A stretch of 64,000 nt of DNA from Myxococcota bacterium (GTDB lineage: Bacteria; Myxococcota_A; UBA9042; PHBI01; JAWLBL01), in NCBI GenBank assembly GCA_041687695.1, contig JAWLBL010000021.1, forward strand, positions 1-64,000, written 5' to 3'. Both the position numbers and the translations under genes were made by a program. Positions 19,166-38,044 of this stretch are shown here, piece by piece; within the stretch, counting starts at the first letter, position 1; each line of letters opens with the position of its first letter. The notes beneath the pieces are model-generated. The model was not told the DNA's origin and made no database searches. It saw nothing but the letters and a program-made list of their open reading frames with translations.

Positions 19166-20017
19166 TCACCCCGTCGCCGGCCCCGCGGGCTGCGTCAGGA
19201 CGAAGCGCCAGGGCGACTTGGGGTGGCCCAGGATGAGGGTGCTGCGGGGCTCGTCGAGGCCGACCTCGTCCAGGGTCGCGCCGCCGCCCACGCGCACGCC
19301 GTTGACCAGGGTGCCCAGGGTGCTGCCGCGGTCCTGCAGGCGGTAACGCGCGGCGCCGTCGACGACCAGGGCGCAGTGGTTGCGCGACACGACGTAGGGC
19401 GGGGCGTCGGGGACGTGGAGGTCGTTGAAGTCGAAGACGTCGTCGGTGACGACCGAGGGGCGGCGGCCGAAGCGGAAGGGCAGCTTGGTGATGCGCAGCC
19501 CGTCGCCGATGAGGGCGCGGGTCTGGACGCTGCCGGGCTCGAGGGTCAGGGCGCGGGCGGCCGGGATGGTGGTGGGCGGCTGGGTGGCGGCGCTGGCGGG
19601 GGCGGGGTCGAGCCCGGCGGCGGCCGCGGTGGCCTGCAGGGCGGCGAGCTGGGTCTCGAGGGCGGCGTAGCGGACGTTCATCAGGCGCAGGCGCTCGAAG
19701 AGCACCTTGAGCATGGGGAACACGCGCCGGGGGTCGCTGGCGAGCAGCTCGTTGAAGCCGTCGCGGCTGATGACGCTGAGGGTGCAGTCCTCGAGGGCGA
19801 CCACCGAGGCCGAGCGCGGCTCGTCTAGGATGAAGCTCATCTCGCCGAAGAACTGGCCGGGGCCGAGGCGCGCCAGGATGACCTGCTTGCCGCCCGACTC
19901 CTTGTAGACCGCCACCGAGCCGGTCAGGACGCCGTAGGCCACCTCGTCGACCTCGCCCTCGCGGACGATGACCGCGCCACGGGGCACGGTGATCTTGCGC
20001 TGCAGCTCGCGGCTCAT
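19166..20017 (-). CDS. Cyclic nucleotide-binding plus FHA domain protein
   Basis: FFGEMSFI..PRSASV (cNMP), a coiled coil, then FGRR...VSRNHC...DRGSTLGTLVNG (FHA). Confidence 0.9.
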   Translation of the reverse strand: MSRELQRKITVPRGAVIVREGEVDEVAYGVLTGSVAVYKESGGKQVILARLGPGQFFGEMSFILDEPRSASVVALEDCTLSVISRDGFNELLASDPRRVFPMLKVLFERLRLMNVRYAALETQLAALQATAAAAGLDPAPASAATQPPTTIPAARALTLEPGSVQTRALIGDGLRITKLPFRFGRRPSVVTDDVFDFNDLHVPDAPPYVVSRNHCALVVDGAARYRLQDRGSTLGTLVNGVRVGGGATLDEVGLDEPRSTLILGHPKSPWRFVLTQPAGPATG

Positions 20018-20230
20018 CGGCCGACCTCGCGGGCAGGGGGGCTGGGGGGGGGCTGGCCATGCGGCCGGGCCGTAGTGCGGGCGTGACGGGACGCTACAGC
20101 GCCCCGCGGGGGCTGACAAGGTGGCCAGAGGACGCGCGGCGCCGGGGGAGGTAGCGGTCGTCCGGCCGGCGCGGGGCGCTTAGGGTTGAGCTACGTCGCG
20201 CGCACCCTGACCGCCGCCCGGGAGGACGAC

Positions 20231-26635: not shown

Positions 26636-26951
26636 GCCGGCCGGCTGGAAGAGGGTGTCGTATGGATGCCGGCTGAGGCGGCCCATGAGTGCTCCGGCTT
26701 GCCGGAGCCCCGGCCCCGGCGGCTTGCCGCCGGGATCTGGCCGCCAAACCCGGCGCAGCAAGCTGCGCCGGATGGGGGCTCCACCAAGGTGGAGCACTCC
26801 GGTTGGGCTTCTGCGACACCCTCTGGAAGCCGGCGGTCCCAGGGGACGGATGCCAAGATTGCCCCGAATCGGCCGGCTGGAAGCCGGCGATCCCCACGCC
26901 GGGATGCCGAGATGGCCCCGAATCGGCCGGCTGGAAGCCGGCGATCCCAGG
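26636..26951. repeat. Intergenic mosaic of REP-like palindromes (BIME-like)
   Basis: GCCGGCT-GGA-AGCCGGCG(A/G)TCCCA occurs as 2 full and 2 partial copies. Also GAGT-GCTCCGGC-TT-GCCGGAGC (26687-26708), CGGCGCAGC-AA-GCTGCGCCG (26751-26770) and GGAGCACTCC (26791-26800). Confidence 0.85.
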
Positions 26952-26981
26952 GCGGCCGGCGCGGGGGTGATGGACGGCTGC

Positions 26982-27031
26982 TCGGACTGCACGAGCTCGC
27001 TCGTGCTCCGGCTTGGCGCAGCTCGCTGCGC
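26982..27031 (-). repeat. Double-hairpin REP-like element, copy 2 (inverted)
   Basis: 27-bp and 16-bp exact reverse-complement matches to 21821-21847 and 21797-21812. Confidence 0.85.
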
Positions 27032-27034
27032 CGG

Positions 27035-29479
27035 CTACTCCAACAGGCCCTGGGGCCAGGGGGTGAAGTGCCAGCGCTCGAGGCCGAGGCCGAAGGGGGA
27101 CTCGGGGGGGCGGTGCCAGCCTTGCAGGCGGGGGTTGGCGAGGAGGCGCTCGTCCGTGAAGGCCAGGGGGATGCTGGGGAGGGCCTGGGACCAGGCGGCG
27201 AAGAGGGCGTCGCGGAGCTGGTCGCGACGCTCGGGGTACAGGGCGCGCTGCTCGCGCTGGACCAGGGCGTGGACGGCGTCGGTGTAGGCGACGTTGCGGG
27301 CCGTGGAGGGGTAGCGGCCATTGTCCTGGGGCAGGTTCCACCACTGCTGGGGCGGGGCGTCGCGGGCGCCGCGCAGGGTGTGCAGGACCAGGCCGGGGTG
27401 GCCGCCGTCGCGCCACAGGGGCCAGGTGCTGCGGACGGGCTCGGGCCTAAGGGTCAGGCCGACGGCGGCCAGGTCGGCGGTCAGGAGCTCGACCAGCTCG
27501 GGTGGGGTGCTCTGGGCGTAGGCCAGCGGGATGACGGCCCCAGTGGCACCGGCCTGAGCCAGGGCGGCGCGGGCGGCGTCCGGGTCGTGGGCGATGGGGG
27601 CGACGCCGGCGGGCAGGCGGTCGCCGACCGGGACGTGGGCGACGCGGCTGGCGTCGCCGAAGACCTGGGTGACCAGGCGCTGGCGGTCGATGGCCTGGAC
27701 GATGGCGCGGCGGACCTCGGGGCGGGCGAGCAGGGGGTGCTCGAGGTTCGGGTGCAGGAAGACGAAGTTGGCCGAGGGGCCCTCGTGGACCCGGCCGGGG
27801 TGGTGCTGGGCGACCTGGTCGAGGTGCTGGGGCGACAGGTCGTTGGGGGCGGTGATGTCGACCTCGCCGGCGAGGAAGGCGCGGAGCAGGGCGTCCCGGT
27901 CCGGGTAGCGCAGGATCTCGACGCGGGGGATGCTGGGCGGCGCGCCGAGGAAGTGGGGGTTGGCGAGGGCGACGAGGCGGTCGTCGTCGTGCGAGGCGAT
28001 GTGGTAGGGGCCGGTCGAGGGGACGCCGGTGCGGCCGAGGTGGGTGCGGACGGCGGCGTAGCCCTGTTGCCGGTACAGGTCGCCGACGACGTGGGCGGGC
28101 CACAGGGTCGGGGGGGCGAGGGCGCGGGAGAGGCGGTCGGACCAGCGCAGGACCAGCGTGCGGGCGTCGAGGGCGCGCCAGCCGACGAGGTGCTCGTCGG
28201 GGCTGGCGACCAGCGGCAGCGCCAGGTCGGCGACGGTGACCAGGCGGCCGTCGGACCAGCGGGCGCCGTCGCGCAGGCGCCAGGTCACCTCGAGCTCGCC
28301 GCCGGCGAGGAAGCGCAGGGCCCGGCTGTCGACGGTGGGGGCCTCCTCGACCAGCAGCGGGACGGGGCCGGCCTGCGGGTCGTCGTGGACCAGGGGCCAG
28401 TAGGCGGCGACGCCGGCCGCCGAGCTGGCGACGCGCAGGTTGCCGGTCGTGCCGATGCGGACCACGTCGCGGGCGGAAGCCGGTCGAGACAGGGCGGGCA
28501 CCGGGGCGGGGGCGCTTGCGGGCACCGGCAGGGCGTCGGGCACGGCGGCCCAGATGAGGCCGAGGGCGGTCAGCGGCAGGCCGGAGAAGACGCCGCGCTG
28601 GAAGAAGGCCAGCTGGCGCAGGCGGCCGCCGCGGTGGAGGCGATAGGAGACCACGGCCGCGACGACGCACATCGTCGAGACCAGGTAGACGACGGTGAAC
28701 AGGGCGTCGGCCAGGGTCAGGTAGGCGACGGCGGGCAGCACGTCCGAGACGCTGAACTGGAAGGCGAAGCAGGCCACCATGCCGGTGACGCTCATGGTCA
28801 GGCGCGGCTGCAGCGAGTCGGGGTGGACGAAGAGCGAGCAGAGGACGACCAGGGCGACGATGAACAGCGGCAAGAAGAGCTTGAGCACGACGGGGCGGAT
28901 GGGCCGCTCGAGCGCGACCTCGAAGGCGACGCGGTCCACCTGGGCGGCCTGGCCCTCGAAGGCGAGGTGGCCCAGATCCGAGCGGAAGGCGCGGGTCGTG
29001 CGCGCGGGGCGGAACTCGGGCTCGTAGTGCCAGTCGGTGATGCTGAAGGTGCGGGCCATGCCGCTGGCGGCCAGATCGGGGATCAGCTGGCCCTCGTGGG
29101 CGGGCAGCTCGAGCACGACGGCGAGGGTCTGGCGGTCGAAGGGGAAGCGATGCAGCGGGAACTCGCCGCGCAGGGTGCCGCGCAGGCGCCAGCGGGCCGA
29201 GTGCCAGGCGCCGTCGGAGTCGCGGCCCAGGGGCTGCAGCTCGACCCGGGCGCCGTTGGCGACGTGCAGGCGCGCGGGGTCGAAGTCGCCGCGCCACTTG
29301 GCCCAGACGTCCGCGTCGACGTCGAAGACGCCGTTCTTCTGGTCGAAGGTGCTGACGTCGTGGAGGTAGACGCCGACGTAGACCCGCGGGACGTCGGCGT
29401 GAGCGGCGCTGGTGACGAGGCCCACGCCGAGCAGGGCGGCGAGCGTGAGGAGGGAGCGGCGTGCGAAGCGTGCGAGCAA
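27035..29479 (-). CDS. Pentameric ligand-gated ion channel subunit fused to a C-terminal family-5 ABC substrate-binding domain
   Basis: Signal peptide; ECD with VYVGVYLHDV, W.KW and Pro-loop FPFDRQ; pre-M1 ER; M1-M4 with LPAVAYLT.AD. These are followed by SBP5 motifs TWRLRDGARWSDG..VT..D, TGPY, AGEVDI, VRRAI..AIDR, HDPDAA.A.L..AG and LPSIPL. Confidence 0.9.
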   Translation of the reverse strand: MLARFARRSLLTLAALLGVGLVTSAAHADVPRVYVGVYLHDVSTFDQKNGVFDVDADVWAKWRGDFDPARLHVANGARVELQPLGRDSDGAWHSARWRLRGTLRGEFPLHRFPFDRQTLAVVLELPAHEGQLIPDLAASGMARTFSITDWHYEPEFRPARTTRAFRSDLGHLAFEGQAAQVDRVAFEVALERPIRPVVLKLFLPLFIVALVVLCSLFVHPDSLQPRLTMSVTGMVACFAFQFSVSDVLPAVAYLTLADALFTVVYLVSTMCVVAAVVSYRLHRGGRLRQLAFFQRGVFSGLPLTALGLIWAAVPDALPVPASAPAPVPALSRPASARDVVRIGTTGNLRVASSAAGVAAYWPLVHDDPQAGPVPLLVEEAPTVDSRALRFLAGGELEVTWRLRDGARWSDGRLVTVADLALPLVASPDEHLVGWRALDARTLVLRWSDRLSRALAPPTLWPAHVVGDLYRQQGYAAVRTHLGRTGVPSTGPYHIASHDDDRLVALANPHFLGAPPSIPRVEILRYPDRDALLRAFLAGEVDITAPNDLSPQHLDQVAQHHPGRVHEGPSANFVFLHPNLEHPLLARPEVRRAIVQAIDRQRLVTQVFGDASRVAHVPVGDRLPAGVAPIAHDPDAARAALAQAGATGAVIPLAYAQSTPPELVELLTADLAAVGLTLRPEPVRSTWPLWRDGGHPGLVLHTLRGARDAPPQQWWNLPQDNGRYPSTARNVAYTDAVHALVQREQRALYPERRDQLRDALFAAWSQALPSIPLAFTDERLLANPRLQGWHRPPESPFGLGLERWHFTPWPQGLLE

Positions 29480-29590: not shown

Positions 29591-32389
29591 TCACGGCACG
29601 AGCCACCAGGTGTCGTCGTGGAACTGGCCGAAGCCGTCCTCGCCGCCGAAGACGACGACGCGCTCGGCGTCGCCGTCCAGGTAGGCGCCGGCGGCCCGGC
29701 GGCGAGCGCCGGGGGTGGCCCCCGCGGTCGGGCTCATGTTCGCCCAGTCGCTGCCGTCCCACTCCCAGACGTCGCCGAAGAGGACGTTGTTGTCGTCCTC
29801 GCCGCCGTAGACGACGACGCGACGGATGCGGGCGTCGTAGACGACGGTGGCGCCGCGGCGCGCCGGCGGCGACTGGGCGGGGGCGGCCTGGACCCAGCCG
29901 GGGCCGTCGGCCCAGGTCCAGGTCTGGTCCATGACCAGGGTGTCCGCGCCGCCGAAGAGGACGACCTGTTGGTTGAAGTGATCCCAGACCAGGCCGTGGT
30001 TGCTGCGCTTGGACGGCCCGGACGCCTCGAGGGTCCAGTCGACGCCGTCCCAGGTCCAGGTGTCGTCCAGGGCCGGGCCGTTGCGCCCGCCGAAGAGGAG
30101 GACCGGGCCGGTCGGGCCTGCCTGGACCATGGCGTGGTGGGCGCGCGGGGATGGGCTGGTGACCGGGGCCTGCAGCGTCCAGGTCGCCTCGAAGGCGGCG
30201 CCGTTCCAGGCCAGGGTCATCGTGTAGGTGTCGTCGAAGTGGTTGCCGGCCAGATCGCGGCCGCCGAACAGGACGAAGACGTCGTTCACGGCGTCCCAGG
30301 CCATCGCGTGACGGTAGCGGGCGCTGGGGACGGCGCCGAGGTTGGTCGCCTGATGCCAGCACCCCGCCGAGAAGACCCAGGTGTCGCCGAAGGCGCTCAG
30401 GCCGTTCCAGCCACCGAAGAGCACCGCGTACTCGGTCCCGGTGGGGCCGACCATGGCGCTGGCGGAGCGGCCGGGAGGGGTCGCGAGGCAGGCCGGGTAC
30501 TCCTCCCACGAGCGGGCCACCTGGAAGTTGACGGCCATGGTGTCCGCCTGGTCACCGTCGTTGACGGCCACCTCGACGCTGTAGGTGCCCGGCCCCGGGA
30601 AGGCGTGCTTGGGGCGGGCGCCGGAGGCGAGCGTGGTCCCCTGGAAGAGCCAGTCATAGAACAAGAGGTCGCCGTTGGCGTCGTCGACCTCGGCCAGGAA
30701 CGAGTACTCGTAGTCCTTGATGCGCGAGCCGAGGACGTCCAGCACGACGGGCGCCTGCGCGGCGTATCCGGGCGCGTCGATGAAGTCGGTGGCGGTGCCG
30801 CCCTTGCCGTCGGAGACGGTCAACCAGACGCGGCGGGGGTCGGCCGCGAAGGTGTGGGTCACGGCCGTGCCGTCCGCGTAGTCGCCGAGGCCGTAGTCGT
30901 CGCCGTCGCCAACCTCGAAGTTCCAGAAGTAGAAGAGGTCGTCGCCGTCCGGGTCGGTGTAGGCGGCGGTGAAGGCGGCGGTGTCGCCGGTCCAGCCGAA
31001 GGACGCGTTGTGCGGCGTCTGCGGGCAGGAGCCCGGGATGGCCGGGTCGCAGGCGGCGACCGTGAGGCCCGCCCCGACCGGCGCGGGCGGGGCGTTGACG
31101 ATCGGGGCCGAGTGGCGGAACACATGGACCTTTGCCTCGCCGCCAACGCCCATGGTCGTGCTGGCGACCGTGATGTGGATGCCATGGTCGGGGTCCGAGA
31201 AGGTCCGCCCTGGCATCAGGGCGCCGTCGGCCAGGTTGTGGTTGGGGCTCTCGGAGCTCATGTCCACCGTGTGGGTGGGCTCGCCGGGCGCCACCTTGCG
31301 GACGATGACGCCGTCGTTCAGGTTCCAGCCCGAGGTCACGCTCCAGCGATAGCCCGGGTCGCTACGACGCGCTTCGACCGAGTAGAACTCGGCGTTCTGG
31401 TCCGAGGGCAACGAGAGGTCGAGCCCGATCTGCAGGTGCTTGGGCAGCCCGCGGTCCTCGCTGCCTTCGAGGCCGTCGAGGGTCCCCTTCGACCAGCCCG
31501 CGAGGCCGACCAGGGCGGGCAAGGAGCGCGTGAAGTCGGCGGGCAGCCAACCCTTGGCCGCTTTCGTCAGGGCCCGAAAGTGACCCACGTTGTCGGCCAT
31601 CGTGTCGGAGTCGTCGCCGTACTGCCGCAGGTCTTCGTTGATGCTGCTCAGCGAGTACGCGTGGTCCAGACCGAGCGTGTGGCCGAGCTCGTGGTTGGAG
31701 AGGTTGACCCCGAAGGTCGTGCCGCCGGTCCAGACGCGGGTGATGGCGAAGCCCTTGTTGGACAGGACGCCGCAGTCGGTGTCCGCGTTCGTCCGCGCCG
31801 CCACCCCCGGACGCGAGGCCCCGTCGCTGTTGACGGCCGAGGCGTTGAGGAAGATGTCGAAGTCGTCGAGGCCCGCGAACAGGATGCTGTTGCAGAGTTG
31901 GTCGAGGGTGTGGGTGTTGATCATCTTCACCGGGTTGGCGCCGTGCTGATACCAGTTGGCGCCCGCGGGCAGAGGCGCGTCGGCGCGGCCCAGCAGCTCC
32001 ATGGGCCCACCGGGCGCCAGCCGGCCGGCGAGGTACATGTCGAGGACCAGGCTGCCGTAGCTGACGTCTTCGTAGAAGGCGGCGATGTCCAGCGCGGCCT
32101 GCTGCATCTGCGCGATCGAGACCTGGCCGCTGGCGCCGTTGTTGTCGAACAGGCGTACGAGCACCTTGCGGCGCTCGCACCGGGTGGTGCGACCGTCGGC
32201 CAGTTCGAAGCAGGCTTCGGTGACCGCCGGCCCTGCCAAGCCGTCGAAGGCTTCACGGCAGGTCCAGGCCGCCGGCATCGGCGCGGGCACCAGCGCGCCG
32301 CACGGGTGGGTGATCTCGGCCGCCAGGGCCGTGCCGGCGACCAGGAAGGTCGCCAGGGCGGAGAGGAGCAAGCGCTGGAGCATTCGCAC
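29591..32389 (-). CDS. Secreted metzincin (M11 gametolysin-like) peptidase with PKD-like domains and Kelch repeats
   Basis: Signal peptide, HELGHTLGLDH, YGDDSDTM, DPDGD.L.Y.W.F / TVSDGKGG, and repeated VLFGG...DTW.WDG..W. Confidence 0.85.
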   Translation of the reverse strand: MRMLQRLLLSALATFLVAGTALAAEITHPCGALVPAPMPAAWTCREAFDGLAGPAVTEACFELADGRTTRCERRKVLVRLFDNNGASGQVSIAQMQQAALDIAAFYEDVSYGSLVLDMYLAGRLAPGGPMELLGRADAPLPAGANWYQHGANPVKMINTHTLDQLCNSILFAGLDDFDIFLNASAVNSDGASRPGVAARTNADTDCGVLSNKGFAITRVWTGGTTFGVNLSNHELGHTLGLDHAYSLSSINEDLRQYGDDSDTMADNVGHFRALTKAAKGWLPADFTRSLPALVGLAGWSKGTLDGLEGSEDRGLPKHLQIGLDLSLPSDQNAEFYSVEARRSDPGYRWSVTSGWNLNDGVIVRKVAPGEPTHTVDMSSESPNHNLADGALMPGRTFSDPDHGIHITVASTTMGVGGEAKVHVFRHSAPIVNAPPAPVGAGLTVAACDPAIPGSCPQTPHNASFGWTGDTAAFTAAYTDPDGDDLFYFWNFEVGDGDDYGLGDYADGTAVTHTFAADPRRVWLTVSDGKGGTATDFIDAPGYAAQAPVVLDVLGSRIKDYEYSFLAEVDDANGDLLFYDWLFQGTTLASGARPKHAFPGPGTYSVEVAVNDGDQADTMAVNFQVARSWEEYPACLATPPGRSASAMVGPTGTEYAVLFGGWNGLSAFGDTWVFSAGCWHQATNLGAVPSARYRHAMAWDAVNDVFVLFGGRDLAGNHFDDTYTMTLAWNGAAFEATWTLQAPVTSPSPRAHHAMVQAGPTGPVLLFGGRNGPALDDTWTWDGVDWTLEASGPSKRSNHGLVWDHFNQQVVLFGGADTLVMDQTWTWADGPGWVQAAPAQSPPARRGATVVYDARIRRVVVYGGEDDNNVLFGDVWEWDGSDWANMSPTAGATPGARRRAAGAYLDGDAERVVVFGGEDGFGQFHDDTWWLVP

Positions 32390-32538: not shown

Positions 32539-35508
32539 TCAGGGCGTCAGGGCCGACTGGGGGACGAGATCGAGGACGCGCTGGCGCTTTTGCAGGACGT
32601 CGCTGACGGTCCAGGGGATCTCGGGGGCCAGGTTCTCGGCCCACTTGACCATCTCGTCGGAGTAGTGCGGGCTCTGGGCGCGCTCGGACTGGCCGCCGGG
32701 GATGACCGCGTGGACCTGCGGGACGTCGGTCATGCCGTAGACGTTGCGGATGGCCGGGCCGTGGGCGTAGGTGAAGTTGGTGTCGGCCATGCCGGGGTGC
32801 GCGGCGTCGACGACGAAGTTGTCACCCGGGCGGGGGTAGCCGCCGGGCAGCAGCGAGGGCGCCGGGATGTCGAAGGCCGGGGTCACGTTGTGGCGCAGCT
32901 TGACCGTGTGCAGGGCGCCCCAGCGCCAGTCGGCCATCGGCGCGTCGCCGAAGCCGCCGCCGCCCGGGCCGGTCTTGGCCGGGTTGGACGCCAGGGCCAG
33001 GCCCTCGGCCAGGCTCTTGACCAGGATGGCGTCGCGGGTCTCGACCACGTCCTCGGTCGCCGGGTCGTCCCACAGCCCGCTCTGCTGGTGGGCCTCGTCC
33101 CAGGTCGCCATCTGCTCGGGCGCGGTCAGCATGCGGTGGAGCACGCCCACGCGCAGGCGGTCGGGGACGTGGATCTGCTTGTTGCCCAGCGTGTTGGCGA
33201 CCAGCCGGGTCAGGAAGAAGTTGAAGATCGTCGTCGCCACCGCATCCTTGGCCTGCGGGGTCGTCGCCGGGGCGCCCACGCCGCTGGCCGCGTCGTAGGT
33301 CCAGCCGGCCAGGAAGGGCTCGGCGATGTCGATCTGCGCGTTCAGGTGGGCCGCCGCCTGGCTGTCGGCCCCCGAGCGCGCCGCGTCGATGGCCTGCAGC
33401 AGGAACGGCGTCATCAGCTTGCCCAGCGGCGACTCGGTGTCGGCCTGCACGGCCTTCATCGCCTCGGGGGTGATGCCGCCCTGCGCGACCAGCGCGTCCA
33501 TGCGCTCGGTGATGCGCGCCTCGCGGTAGCCGGCGTCCCAGACGTAGCCGATGTACGGCCCGTCGTTGAAGGGGTCGTTGTCGAAGGAGACGCCGATGGG
33601 GTCCGAGTTGGCGGTGATGACGTAGCCCTTGTCGGGGTCGACCGCCTGCGGGATGAGCGCGCGGTCGAGGAACCCGTCCCACTCGGCCGAGCCGTCGCCG
33701 GGCATGGGGAAGAAGGGCGGGTAGTCGAAGTTGCCCGCCTCGATGTGGGCGCGCTTGGGCAGCCGGTGCGACGGGTACCAGGCGATGTGCCCGTCCTTGT
33801 CACCCCACACCCAGTTCTGCGCGCCGACGGCGAAGAGGTCGAGCGCGTCCTTGAAGTCCTGCACCGAGCGCGCCTTGTTCAGGCGCCACACGGCGCTCAG
33901 ATCGGCGGTCGGCTCGAAGCCGGTCCACTTCCACGCCAGCGCCGTCTTGTTGCCGCCGGCGTCCTCGCCCCAGCTCCAGGGGACCACCGGGCCGTGATGC
34001 GGCACGTCGGTGACCGTGACGGTCAGGCGGCACCCCTTTGTGCCCAGGGGCTCGATGACCGGGTCCATGTCGTTCAGCCACCCCGTGACCACGCTCTCGC
34101 AGGTGGCGCCGCCGAACAGGCTCACCTCGAAGACCTCTTCCCGCGTGGTCACCGGGACCTGCGCGCCGTCGAACAGCACGGTCTTGCCGTCGGCGCTGAA
34201 GGTCTCGACGTAGAAGTCGGTGACGTCGCTGAAGAAGACCGTGCCGCCCCAGGCCCCGTGCCCGTTGGTGCCCAGCACGATGCCCGGCGCGCCGGCGAAG
34301 TTGACGCCCGCCACCTCGAAGTCGCCGCCGGCCGGCACCGTCGACAGGTGCACCTGGTAGAACACCGCCGGGTTGCGCAGCGCGAGGTGCGTGTCGTTGG
34401 CCACCAGCGGCCGCCCGCTGGCCGTGTGCTGGCCGCTGACGATCCAGTTGTTGCTGCCGAACTCGGGGCCGCGCGCGAAGTGGTGCGGGATCTGGCGCAT
34501 CTTCTCGGCGTTGACCCGCACCTTGTCCAGGTGCTGCTTGGTCAGCCCGGCGAAGAAGGGCTGCTCGAGCAGGGCCGTGACGTCCACCGTCTTGGGGCCG
34601 CTGCCCGCGAGCGCCGAGTCGATGACCGGCACCTGGGCCGGCGGCGTGAAGTTGACCACGTCGGCCTCGACGCCCTCGAGCGGCGTGCCGTCGAAGCGCG
34701 TCTTGAGGTCCTTGGCGTAGTAGAGCAGGTCCTCTTCGTTCAGGTAGCCGCCGAACGACAGGTCCCAGGTCTGCAGACGCACGATGGTCATGGTGTCGAC
34801 CGGCGTCCACGGCTCGAAGGTGATGCCGAACAGGGCCGCCTCGGTCGGCTTGGGCGCCTTGCCCGCGTTGACCGCCTCGAGGTGCAGGTTCACGCCGGCC
34901 GCGAAGGCGACCATGCGGTCCCACAGCTCGGGGTCGTTGACCTGCGCGTCGGCCGCCATCTGCTCGGCCACCGCGCGCAGCCGCAGGGTCCGCAGCAGCA
35001 CGTCACCCGCCAGCGCGCTCTGCCCGCTGAACTCGGCGAGGCGCCCGGACGCCGCGCTCTTGAGCGTGTGCATCTGGAACAGGCGGTCGCGCGCCGTCAC
35101 GTAACCCTGCGCGAAGGCCAGGTCCAGCTCGCTCTCGGCGTAGATGTGCGGGATGCCGCGGTCGTCGTAGACGACGCGCACCGGCGCCTCGACCCCTTCG
35201 ACCAGCACCGCGTCGTCGGCCTCGTCACCCGCCGCCGGGAACCACTCGGGCCGCTCGAAGGTGATGGGCACCGGACCGCCGTCCGGGCCCGCGTCCCCCG
35301 TGGTCCCGCCGTCGCCCGCGCCGTCGGGCGGCTCGCTGGCGTCGGGGTCGACCGCGTCCTCGCCGCCGTCCGCCTCGCCGACGTCGCCCTTGCCGCCGGT
35401 GTCCGCGACGTCGTCCGTCGCGTCGGCCTGCGTCGCCGGCTCGTCGTCACCACAGGCGAAGAGGCTCGCGCCCGCCGCCGCCACACACACCCAGTGCCGA
35501 AGCTTCAT
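32539..35508 (-). CDS. Penicillin acylase family (S45, Ntn hydrolase) lipoprotein
   Basis: Lipobox LFAC, GIPHIYA, AQGYVTARDRLFQM, GSNNW nucleophile, ANDTHL and PGGQS..SPHY.D. Confidence 0.95.
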   Translation of the reverse strand: MKLRHWVCVAAAGASLFACGDDEPATQADATDDVADTGGKGDVGEADGGEDAVDPDASEPPDGAGDGGTTGDAGPDGGPVPITFERPEWFPAAGDEADDAVLVEGVEAPVRVVYDDRGIPHIYAESELDLAFAQGYVTARDRLFQMHTLKSAASGRLAEFSGQSALAGDVLLRTLRLRAVAEQMAADAQVNDPELWDRMVAFAAGVNLHLEAVNAGKAPKPTEAALFGITFEPWTPVDTMTIVRLQTWDLSFGGYLNEEDLLYYAKDLKTRFDGTPLEGVEADVVNFTPPAQVPVIDSALAGSGPKTVDVTALLEQPFFAGLTKQHLDKVRVNAEKMRQIPHHFARGPEFGSNNWIVSGQHTASGRPLVANDTHLALRNPAVFYQVHLSTVPAGGDFEVAGVNFAGAPGIVLGTNGHGAWGGTVFFSDVTDFYVETFSADGKTVLFDGAQVPVTTREEVFEVSLFGGATCESVVTGWLNDMDPVIEPLGTKGCRLTVTVTDVPHHGPVVPWSWGEDAGGNKTALAWKWTGFEPTADLSAVWRLNKARSVQDFKDALDLFAVGAQNWVWGDKDGHIAWYPSHRLPKRAHIEAGNFDYPPFFPMPGDGSAEWDGFLDRALIPQAVDPDKGYVITANSDPIGVSFDNDPFNDGPYIGYVWDAGYREARITERMDALVAQGGITPEAMKAVQADTESPLGKLMTPFLLQAIDAARSGADSQAAAHLNAQIDIAEPFLAGWTYDAASGVGAPATTPQAKDAVATTIFNFFLTRLVANTLGNKQIHVPDRLRVGVLHRMLTAPEQMATWDEAHQQSGLWDDPATEDVVETRDAILVKSLAEGLALASNPAKTGPGGGGFGDAPMADWRWGALHTVKLRHNVTPAFDIPAPSLLPGGYPRPGDNFVVDAAHPGMADTNFTYAHGPAIRNVYGMTDVPQVHAVIPGGQSERAQSPHYSDEMVKWAENLAPEIPWTVSDVLQKRQRVLDLVPQSALTP

Positions 35509-36140: not shown

Positions 36141-36518
36141 TCAGGTCGCCTCCTGGGTGGCCCCGACGTGCTCGGACACGACGCCCAGCAGCGCCTCGAT
36201 GGAGAAGGGTTTTTGAAGGATTCCGACGATGTTCGACACCGACGCGTCCAGCCCCACCAGCGCGGGCGCGGCGCTCATGATGACGACCGGCACCTCGGCG
36301 AAGCGGGCGTCGGCGGCCATGGTCTCGAGGGTGCGGCGCCCGTCGAGCACCGGCATCATCAGGTCGAGCACGACCAGATCGGGGCGTCGCTCGGCCATGC
36401 GCTCCAAGGCCGCGCGCCCGTTGCCCGCCGTCACCACCGAGTAGCCCTCGTCCTCGAGCAGGTCCCGCAGGGACTCGGCGATGGCGTACTCGTCGTCGAC
36501 CACCAGGATGAGCTTCAT
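36141..36518 (-). CDS. Single-domain response regulator
   Basis: ILVVDDE, DLVVLDLMMPVLDG, MSA and KPF; ATGA overlap with the upstream gene. Confidence 0.95.
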   Translation of the reverse strand: MKLILVVDDEYAIAESLRDLLEDEGYSVVTAGNGRAALERMAERRPDLVVLDLMMPVLDGRRTLETMAADARFAEVPVVIMSAAPALVGLDASVSNIVGILQKPFSIEALLGVVSEHVGATQEAT

Positions 36519-37975
36519 GTTCTGGCCCCCTTCGAGGGGACCGTGTCCTCGGCCGGAGTCGCCGGGTCGACGATTTCGAAGCCCCGGTGGGTCAACCTGA
36601 ACTCGCGCAGGCGGTCGTCGTGGCCGGTGTCGCGCATCTTGAGGACGCAGACCTGGCGGCACAGGTGGCCCTGCCGTTCGTCGTACCTCAGGATGACTAT
36701 GTTCTCGGCCACCGCGGTCAGGGCGTTGGCCTCTATGGCGAACGGGTCGTCGCCGTGGCGCTCGGGCTCCTGGGTGAGCAGGGCCGTGACGCCGGCGACG
36801 CGCAGGTACCCGGCGAGGGCGCCGAGGATCTTCGGAGCGCGCTCGGGCATCACGACGCTCCGCGCCAGGGCCTCGATCCCGTCGATGACGAGGCGTTTGG
36901 CGCCCAGACGCTCGACGAGCGCGAGCACCTCCTCGGCGAACTGGTCGGCGATGAGCTCGAGCGAAGGTCGCCACATGAAGGCCAGCTCGCCCTCGGCCAC
37001 CGCGTCGACCAGGTGGTCACCGGCCGTCGAGGCCTTGCCCAGCAGGCGGCTCGGCGCCTCGTAGAAGCCGACGAACACCCCGCGCTCGCCCTTGGCGATC
37101 CCCTCGGCCAGAAACCGCAGCCCCAGCGACGTCTTGCCGCTGCCGCTGGCCCCGAGCAGCAGGGTCGTCGACTTGACGGCGACGCCGCCGCCCAGCATCT
37201 GGTCGAAGCCCGCGATGCCGAAGCCGGCCACCTCGGGGCCCGCGTCGCCCGGCACGAGCGGCTGCTCGGTCAGGACGGCCTCGAAGCGGGGGTGGATCTC
37301 GATGCCGCGTTGCGTGATCTCGAAGAAGTGGCCGCCCGACATGAAGTCGCTGCCGCGGAACTTGGAGATCTCGACCTCGCGCACGGCGCGCAGGCCGTCG
37401 CGCCGCGTGGACAGCCGCAGGATGCCGTCCACCATGGTCTGCGCCGGGTAGTGGGTGCCGGGCGCCGGCGTGCTGGTCAGCATCAGGACCGTGCAGCCGA
37501 CCAGCTCGACGTGCGCCTTGAGCTCGTGGATGAACTTCTTGAGCAGCAGCTCGCTGTCGGCGACCGACCCGGCGGTGACGATGCCGTCGATGACCAGCAT
37601 GGTCGCCCGGTGCTCGATGATGGTGCGCCGCACCATGGTGAGCAGCCCGGTCAGGTTCTTCTGCTCGAGCGCCTGGTAGCCGCTGACGTAGACCAGCCCA
37701 TCGCCGATGATGTCGCGCCGGAAGAAGTCGAACGACTGCACGTGGGACAGCATGCGCGCGTGCGACTCGCTGAGCAGGGTCAGGTAGACCGCGCGCCCGC
37801 CGCCGCTGACGTGGTGGTGGACGATGTGGTTGCTGAGGACCGTCTTGCCCGCGCCCGGGCTGCCGAGGACCAGGTAGATCCCCGCGCGGAGCAGCCCGCC
37901 GTGCGTGAGTCGATCGAGGCCAGGCACTCCGGTGATGACTCGCTCGAGGGGAGCGGGGATGAATTGGTCGTTCAT
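36515..37975 (-). CDS. KaiC-like/RAD55 double-domain RecA-family ATPase
   Basis: Two domains: TGVPGLD, GSPGAGKT, VIDG, KFRGS; and GIAGFD, GASGSGKT, VIDG, KMRD. Confidence 0.93.
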   Translation of the reverse strand: MNDQFIPAPLERVITGVPGLDRLTHGGLLRAGIYLVLGSPGAGKTVLSNHIVHHHVSGGGRAVYLTLLSESHARMLSHVQSFDFFRRDIIGDGLVYVSGYQALEQKNLTGLLTMVRRTIIEHRATMLVIDGIVTAGSVADSELLLKKFIHELKAHVELVGCTVLMLTSTPAPGTHYPAQTMVDGILRLSTRRDGLRAVREVEISKFRGSDFMSGGHFFEITQRGIEIHPRFEAVLTEQPLVPGDAGPEVAGFGIAGFDQMLGGGVAVKSTTLLLGASGSGKTSLGLRFLAEGIAKGERGVFVGFYEAPSRLLGKASTAGDHLVDAVAEGELAFMWRPSLELIADQFAEEVLALVERLGAKRLVIDGIEALARSVVMPERAPKILGALAGYLRVAGVTALLTQEPERHGDDPFAIEANALTAVAENIVILRYDERQGHLCRQVCVLKMRDTGHDDRLREFRLTHRGFEIVDPATPAEDTVPSKGART

Positions 37976-38044
37976 GGGCCCTCTTCTCGGGTACTTACGA
38001 AGGGATGCGGCGACCGAGGGCGACGGTCCGGCGTCGAGGCGCGG

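Follow-up and report, generated by a model that had tools for sequence, protein, structure and literature searches.

The principle of joining a pentameric ligand-gated ion channel (pLGIC) to an accessory binding domain was already predicted in 2005. The accessible parts of the survey by Tasneem, Iyer, Jakobsson & Aravind (PMC549065) describe amino-terminal fusions to a PBP-I domain ('ART-LGIC') or to MCP-N plus Cache domains, together with PBP-II or Cache proteins as operon partners, and the available portions of a 2022 review (PMC9221113) and of the DeCLIC papers (PMC12664993) mention N-terminal accessory domains only. Within these portions, the N-terminal domain of DeCLIC is the only accessory domain characterised so far and the only one with solved structures. 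Stand-alone bacterial channels such as GLIC, sTeLIC and those of the ELIC type end a few residues after the fourth transmembrane helix (M4). Here we describe a gene in a 64,000-nucleotide stretch of a Myxococcota genome (contig JAWLBL010000021.1; hereafter the window, with a G+C content of 73.6%) whose product shares the fold of these stand-alone channels and then runs 500 residues further, through a tether, into a family-5 solute-binding protein (SBP).

The fusion resembles the N-terminal-domain pLGICs of the 2005 survey (PMC549065) and DeCLIC in that a Pro-loop core is likewise paired with an additional periplasmic domain, a presumed ligand sensor. It differs from them in the position of that domain, which follows M4 at the C-terminus instead of preceding the extracellular domain (ECD), and in its kind, a cluster-C family-5 SBP of ~476 residues in place of PBP-I, Cache or the jelly-roll lobes of DeCLIC. 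No account of such a channel turned up in searches of the open-access literature for pLGICs together with solute-binding proteins, SBP_bac_5, fusions or myxobacteria. The phrase 'C-terminal domain' has no occurrence in eight open-access pLGIC papers, and none of six terms for extra domains is present in the text of Jaiteh et al. 2016 (PMC4795631). The original prediction was aware of no characterised example and took known extra domains to be N-terminal, which is borne out within the open-access literature in the portions available. As far as seen in that literature, what is new is the position after M4, the class of binding protein and a sensor shared with receptor kinases.

Receptor signalling by solute-binding proteins of the SBP_bac_5 type has precedents, such as DppA acting on Tap and CBP acting on ChiS, as described in the accessible sections of PMC8050422. 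In the DppA–Tap, AibA–TlpB, CBP–ChiS and GlnH–GlnX–PknG systems described there, a liganded SBP likewise acts on a membrane receptor, so that family-5 binding proteins serve signalling instead of, or in addition to, transport. These systems consist of a free SBP with a chemoreceptor, a histidine kinase, a GGDEF/EAL protein or a Ser/Thr kinase complex, whereas in the fusion the SBP is tethered and the output is a channel. The same sections give four families of SBP-stimulated receptors and contain the term 'ion channel' zero times; they name a single SBP-stimulated Ser/Thr kinase system, the SBP of which is a free protein (PMC8050422).

The original prediction of one uninterrupted 814-residue open reading frame (ORF) is matched exactly at 27035–29479, on the minus strand and with a TTG start. 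Its domain order of signal peptide, pLGIC, Pro/Ala linker and SBP is likewise upheld by an AlphaFold2 model and by structure comparison. The features of the gene are as follows.

27035–29479, minus strand: whole gene for the 814-residue pLGIC–SBP fusion; TTG start at 29479 and stop codon at 27035–27037; AlphaFold2 mean predicted local distance difference test (pLDDT) 93.1 and predicted template-modelling score (pTM) 0.86.
29396–29479, minus strand: signal peptide, residues 1–28, ending AHA|D; hydrophobic core by hydropathy, with residues 2–20 helical in the model.
28901–29395, minus strand: periplasmic beta-sandwich of the channel (the ECD), residues 29–193; from the GLIC structure match over residues 26–317 and from conservation.
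29129–29146, minus strand: Pro-loop motif FPFDRQ, residues 112–117, cysteine-free and fitting the F/Y-P-x-D pattern; from motif location and conservation in 58 sequences.
28544–28900, minus strand: transmembrane domain (TMD) M1–M4, residues 194–312; from hydropathy, DSSP on the AlphaFold2 model and structure comparison.
28745–28813, minus strand: M2, residues 223–245; from DSSP on the model and hydropathy.
28544–28621, minus strand: M4, residues 287–312; from DSSP on the model and hydropathy.
28466–28543, minus strand: Pro/Ala-rich tether from M4 to the SBP, residues 313–338 (26 residues), VPDALPVPASAPAPVPALSRPASARD; from the sequence and the alignment of 58.
27038–28465, minus strand: family-5 (cluster C) solute-binding domain, residues 339–814 (476 residues); from Pfam PF00496, the AapF structure match and Foldseek.

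That the fused protein exists as described is, in our view, practically certain. The G+C content at third codon positions (GC3) is 0.97 across the stop-to-stop frame, a value typical of genuine genes in this genome. By DSSP on the model, with agreeing hydropathy peaks, M1 comprises residues 194–217 and M3 residues 256–283; the M3–M4 loop is four residues long, is spanned by the Arg-rich sequence RLHRGGRLRQ, and leaves the channel half without an intracellular domain. Because a signal peptide is followed by four transmembrane helices and an Arg-rich M3–M4 loop, the ECD and the C-terminal SBP are both predicted to be periplasmic, with M4 exiting on the outside, and the periplasmic placement of the SBP proposed earlier is supported by the same features.

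Profile searches identify the two halves to different degrees. Pfam SBP_bac_5 (PF00496) matches residues 395–713 with an E-value of 4.7e-39 and 135 bits against a cut-off of 32.4, whereas the channel half of the window protein is unmatched in Pfam at E ≤ 0.1, with no Neur_chan domain; of the Pfam families that were anticipated for this protein, only the binding-protein family was recovered. NCBIfam LGIC_1 does match the channel half (E 5.9e-15), with 55.5 bits that lie below its cut-off of 500, and PF02932 is precomputed for 22 of 93 close relatives of the fusion. The cut-offs of curated models are missed by the channel half through divergence of this branch, and the evidence from fold is not contradicted by it. 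In phmmer searches against PDB sequences the channel half finds GLIC (4e-7), DeCLIC (6e-7, spanning residues 106–311 of the fusion) and sTeLIC (2.8e-6), as well as a GLIC–GABA-A chimera; no ELIC- or Erwinia-titled chain is among the best 60 of the 163 PDB sequence matches. The top match overall is to the SBP half, from AapF (E 2.2e-14). On this half the NCBIfam equivalogs for nickel, peptide and SapA-type binding proteins all score far below their cut-offs, the best being Opp5A_nikA with 36.8 against 600 bits, and by these cut-offs it falls in no named specificity group (NikA, DppA, OppA, SapA or CntA).

The AlphaFold2 model, built from a 58-row family alignment, was compared as a whole against all representative structures. 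Residues 26–317 align to GLIC (6hja_A) with a Z score of 22.5 and a root-mean-square deviation of 2.5 Å over 278 of 311 residues, followed by GluCl (Z 22.0), sTeLIC (Z 21.2) and DeCLIC (Z 20.1, residues 24–317); the structural alignments to the stand-alone bacterial channels show 19–20% identity. Residues 338–806 align to AapF (7kz8, Z 29.2, 436 residues aligned), DppA (29.0) and AppA (28.9), the three matches together spanning residues 331–807, with NikZ, AgaA and NikA at a Z of about 28, and Foldseek returns AapF (7kz9) as the best match to the SBP half at 3e-27. SBP chains fill the top of the list when the whole model is searched, and pLGIC matches start at rank 38. At the level of the predicted structure, the pLGIC fold of the channel half, M4 included, and a complete two-lobe family-5 clamshell are established. 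AapF of Pseudomonas sp. PDC86 is the nearest solved SBP and, by PDB title, binds HEHEAA, a signalling molecule and small amide; it is a free periplasmic protein, 21–23% identical to the fusion SBP, and the comparison is one of fold and sequence.

The fusion is not confined to this assembly, and full-length relatives occur in many independent assemblies, which disposes of the first refuting condition named in the original prediction. A word-indexed search yielded 98 proteins including the query itself, and 93 of the 97 others are 694–850 residues long and cover 85–99% of the query. These 93 full-length relatives, taken as 90%-identity clusters, are 33–63% identical to the query and all carry PF00496; the databases name relatives 'hypothetical protein' or 'ABC transporter substrate-binding protein'. 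Organism names on the matches are Sandaracinaceae, Sandaracinus, Polyangiaceae, Myxococcaceae, Myxococcales or 'Deltaproteobacteria', and every named organism among them belongs to the Myxococcota. An exhaustive phmmer search of 1.84 billion 50%-identity representatives returned 110 proteins with E-values of 1e-30 or lower; among the best 150 representatives, 48 are full-length fusions (791–917 residues, down to 27% identity), full length meaning a single stretch from query residue 40 or earlier through at least residue 773, and many shorter fragments also bridge the junction between M4 and the SBP. In the ESM Atlas, a 171-member cluster holds the same two Pfam families, with Myxococcota as its commonest phylum. 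Finally, a stop-free full-length gene is present in 8 of 401 sampled Myxococcota genomes, this one included, under six family codes. The fusion is not an assembly artefact, and the architecture is real and conserved.

The genome to which the window belongs (7.97 Mb, 99.3% complete) has exactly one copy of the fusion, and no further match to the channel half was found anywhere in it. Two of its SBP_bac_5 copies, in an 847-residue ORF on contig C20 and a 979-residue ORF on contig C5, were ruled out as further fusions and are ordinary SBPs, because GC3 profiles and a lipoprotein signal put their true starts much later. In one other sampled genome (G070:C139:25422-27899) the fusion appears as three collinear pieces, matching query residues 15–181, 286–531 (with a TGA) and 511–811, and is either a decaying gene or an assembly or frameshift error. 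Among sequencing runs, no RNA run is listed as containing the sequence. A DNA run from a compost metagenome that contains 6% of the sampled words gave short pieces only, none spanning the gene, and a 151-nucleotide contig covers 28471–28621, thus M4 and nearly the whole tether, with 6 differences; this is too little to count as read support.

Conservation was measured over 58 full-length fusion sequences, counting columns that are at least 90% conserved. Conservation peaks in the ECD, where 37 of 164 columns reach this threshold, compared with 11 of 119 in the TMD, 25 of 476 in the SBP and 0 of 26 in the tether. Residues W59, W62, N75, W92, P113, D115, S139 and W150 of the ECD are invariant; P113 and D115 lie in the Pro-loop, where F112, F114 and Q117 are also at least 90% conserved. 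The loop-C stretch S167 D168 x G170 ... E175 G176 is nearly invariant as well. Together with several aromatic residues, this pattern would suit an ECD that itself binds a ligand, so that the tethered SBP might capture or concentrate a ligand which then moves to the inter-subunit site of the channel and gates it there. Such a hand-off has been published for N-terminal and operonic partners in the accessible parts of Tasneem et al. 2005 (PMC549065). We regard it as unlikely for the fusion: in cluster-C SBPs the ligand is tightly enclosed and leaves only when a partner is engaged, and no such release mechanism is evident here.

The pore-lining helix is conserved in a channel-like manner. Across the 58 sequences M2 has Arg at 0' in 52, Thr at 6' in 52, Leu at 9' in 50, Ala at 13' in 56, Phe at 16' in 48 and Pro at 23' in all 58, and it is framed by two acidic rings, at -2' (Glu in 28 and Asp in 18, 46 of 58 together) and at 20' (Asp in 37 and Glu in 10, 47 of 58). 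We take this acidic -2'/20' pattern to be that of cation-selective bacterial relatives such as GLIC. The hydrophobic 9' and 16' positions and the polar 6' position fit a predicted channel-like pore across the family; stand-alone bacterial pLGICs share the hydrophobic 9'/16' pore and the acidic -2' of the family consensus, as they share the cysteine-free Pro-loop and the four-residue M3–M4 loop. The window copy departs from them at -2' (Gln), -1' (Pro) and 9' (Val) and keeps Thr at 6', Ala at 13' and Phe at 16'. The Gln–Pro pair is common to the window protein and its five closest relatives (P0004, P0005, P0006, P0018 and P0041), while -1' is usually Val or Ala across the alignment. These substitutions may alter ion selectivity or gating in this branch.

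The departure of the window's branch from the acidic -2' and the 9' Leu would also suit a reading in which the SBP is not a small-molecule sensor, being instead a structural, protein-binding or cell-wall-binding module, such as an inhibitory lid or a binder of peptidoglycan peptides, or in which a non-conducting channel half merely pentamerises the SBPs. By PDB titles, family-5 SBPs can bind murein peptides (MppA, DppE), and SapA even binds RNA or haem, which lends this explanation some substance. The original prediction named a peptide or metal chelate as candidate ligand; AapF binds a small signalling amide, and other members of the cluster bind opines, sugars and sialic acid. We nevertheless think it improbable, as the clamshell is intact in both lobes (Z 29 over about 440 residues), the family-5 signature W408, D410, G411 and N507 is conserved in the SBPs of the alignment, and the pore pattern is conserved across the family.

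Phylogenetic analyses indicate that the binding domain is shared with another type of membrane receptor. The closest relatives of the fusion SBP outside channels are proteins of 868–924 residues with, in order, a Pkinase domain, one transmembrane helix, a linker of 30–45 residues and SBP_bac_5, and their SBPs start with the same SxRxxLRIG strand as the channel SBPs. Eight such receptor Ser/Thr kinases carry the same SBP clade (P0097–P0099, P0135, P0147, P0148, P0159 and P0165). In a tree of 79 SBP domains (LG+G4, rooted with the SBP of the genome's own Opp operon), the kinase SBPs are nested within the channel SBPs: seven of the eight form one clade with a Shimodaira–Hasegawa-like approximate likelihood-ratio test (SH-aLRT) value of 98, which sits in a 37-row clade (SH-aLRT 99) holding 21 channel SBPs, and the eighth pairs with a channel SBP (SH-aLRT 96). 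Ten residues, P381, G394, V398, W400, P487, G512, D541, L575, G696 and E801, are common to channel and kinase SBPs and differ in the genome's Opp-operon SBP and lipoprotein SBP. On the other hand, R449 (about 28133–28135) occurs in 50 of 58 channel SBPs versus 0 of 8 kinase SBPs, which makes it a candidate contact with the channel. Two distinct kinds of membrane signalling device thus use one SBP clade as their outer domain, and this sharing is our strongest argument that the SBP of the fusion is probably a sensor rather than a transport component.

The channel halves of the fusions form one group. In a tree of 90 channel cores, for which the last 340 residues of longer proteins were used, the 58 C-terminally fused cores fall on one side of a branch with SH-aLRT 84 (95 for 57 of them), compatible with a single origin of the fusion. 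Their neighbours in the tree are stand-alone pLGICs and pLGICs with an N-terminal NMT1_3 or Peripla_BP_6 domain. The nearest relatives of the channel half (P0198 and P0202, also P0204 and L031:124-3312) carry such N-terminal NMT1_3 (PBP-II/TAXI-like) or Peripla_BP_6 (PBP-I) domains. The N-terminal NMT1_3–pLGIC fusion may be undescribed as well, because the 2005 survey, in the parts accessible, gives PBP-II as an operon partner only (PMC549065).

The surroundings of the gene are consistent with its being autonomous. The original prediction that no ABC permease or ATPase genes lie nearby holds in the window and at five other fusion loci: no ABC transporter family was found in 10 window ORFs scanned, nor in 29 ORFs flanking the five other loci. 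On the window's contig, BPD_transp_1 has 0 of its 7 genome matches and ABC_tran 1 of its 51, about 124 kb away and outside the window. Because transporter genes are absent nearby and the Opp operon of the genome lies on another contig with an SBP of its own, the fusion gene looks autonomous.

Upstream on the minus strand lie genes for a protein with PKD domains and a Kelch beta-propeller (29591–32389, 932 residues) and for a penicillin amidase (32539–35508, 989 residues); downstream on the same strand, after about 480 nucleotides, follows a gene for an AAA+TPR protein. None of the families of these window neighbours recurs beside the fusion at the five other loci, and no neighbour family is common to those five loci among their 29 flanking ORFs. 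Further neighbours on the same strand, at 36515–38044 and 19166–20119, encode a KaiC-like double ATPase and a cNMP-binding and FHA protein, and neither recurs at the five other loci. The downstream gap of ~480 nucleotides contains a 54-nucleotide tandem repeat (about 2.5 copies of 82–95% identity within 26823–26952) and several GC-rich inverted repeats. One of these, GGCGCAGCTCGCTGCGCC at 27003–27034, immediately follows the stop codon and could be either a repeat element or a T-less terminator; a promoter and terminator scan in this 74%-GC DNA returned nothing.

Taken together, we consider it probable, with moderate confidence, that the protein is a self-contained inner-membrane receptor channel controlled by its own SBP. 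Five subunits would form the pore, and five SBPs would ring the periplasmic domain. Each SBP would bind a small periplasmic ligand, and the liganded, closed SBP would change the gating of the channel, most likely by docking on the conserved ECD of its own or a neighbouring subunit or at the post-M4 / ECD–TMD junction; a pull on M4 through the floppy tether would be a less likely route. Opening would then let ions pass, and the resulting shift in membrane potential or ion content would serve as a fast signal. The sensor-channel interpretation of the original prediction is supported in part: its architecture, domain order and periplasmic SBP are borne out and the fusion recurs, while its iGluR-like principle, understood as pulling, looks less likely than docking.

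The comparison with ionotropic glutamate receptors (iGluRs) bears on that principle. These receptors and GluR0 combine a clamshell and an ion pore in one polypeptide, a likeness of principle only, and the fusion is not a member of their family: they have a tetrameric K-channel-like pore, a different PBP class and a clamshell split by the pore segments, whereas the pore domain of the fusion folds as a pLGIC and the SBP follows M4 as one unbroken block. The linkers from clamshell to pore in iGluRs are short and bear force. The tether of the fusion is Pro/Ala-rich, is most often 26 residues long (range 20–40) and lacks any conserved residue across the 58 sequences, and its pLDDT in the model is 78–81. 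Docking is favoured over pulling because a long, variable and proline-rich tether would be a poor force transmitter, because the length of the tether is conserved, as for a spacer that reaches a defined site, because the ECD is more conserved than the SBP, and because a pTM of 0.86, in a chain of two domains, suggests that they are placed in a defined way relative to each other. A conserved tether length, together with an SBP clade that also occurs on kinases without a pLGIC ECD, fits signalling by conformational change of the SBP and speaks against the hand-off of ligand to the ECD considered above.

Several points weigh against this reading. The suggested docking of the SBP on the ECD draws its evidence from the pTM of 0.86 and from conservation alone; a complex prediction of channel residues 30–315 with SBP residues 339–814 (58-row alignment) gave 0.16 and 0.17, where the mark is 0.32, and counts neither way. 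Two features of its own family, the 9' Leu and an acidic -2' residue, are missing from the window protein. The trees come from a quick search, with rows taken from the best matches to this query. The distribution is patchy, and the fusion was found in none of the other genomes of the same order or class in the 401-genome sample. Lastly, a single Opp-type ABC operon lies elsewhere in the genome, on contig C46 (C46:1171-7362), and comprises an SBP of its own, two BPD_transp_1 permeases (one with OppC_N) and two ATPases with oligo_HPY.

The presence of this operon opens the alternative that the SBP of the fusion serves the Opp-type importer, with the channel half as a membrane anchor or engaged in an unrelated activity. 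An orphan SBP may use a shared transporter, Opp in the case of MppA, and importers of the OpuA/GlnPQ type have SBPs fused to membrane domains. MppA is also listed without a transporter gene in the accessible sections of PMC8050422, and the database label 'ABC transporter substrate-binding protein' on relatives of the fusion points the same way. We place little weight on this alternative. The C46 operon already includes an SBP, ABC genes are lacking beside the fusion both in the window and at the five other loci, and the SBP clade is shared with receptor kinases and differs from the Opp-operon and lipoprotein SBPs at its clade-specific positions. A mere anchor, moreover, would not need a 290-residue channel with a best-conserved ECD and conserved pore-lining residues. 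An early impression that the genome has no Opp-type importer, from the absence of any PF19300 (BPD_transp_1_N) match in it, was rejected, as OppC_N, oligo_HPY and BPD_transp_1 find the C46 operon; since that operon lacks a PF19300 match, PF19300 is an unsafe marker for the absence of Opp-type importers.

The natural roles and ligands of bacterial pLGICs are, to our knowledge, largely unknown. If the receptor-channel reading is right, this family puts a sensor with screenable ligands at the opposite end of the subunit, at M4. The pLGIC literature discusses the C-terminus of M4 as an allosteric and lipid-sensing element (PMC9221113, in the portions available), and the fusion gives a natural handle for testing post-M4 coupling in gating. 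The family also offers a natural starting point for chemically gated channels whose binding proteins can be exchanged.

The occurrence of one SBP cassette on both channels and receptor kinases suggests a signalling logic not found in the open-access literature searched. More tentatively, and with somewhat less than even confidence, we propose that this cassette, made up of a transmembrane helix, a spacer and an SBP that starts with SxRxxLRIG, may be interchangeable between an ionotropic output through a pLGIC and an enzymatic output through a kinase, and that five docking clamshells may constitute a third, undescribed mode of controlling a Cys-loop pore. If true, this would be a bacterial parallel to the ionotropic and metabotropic receptors of animals with one ligand-binding fold in common, and a single ligand, perhaps from prey or kin, might be sensed by both receptor types at two speeds, fast and slow.

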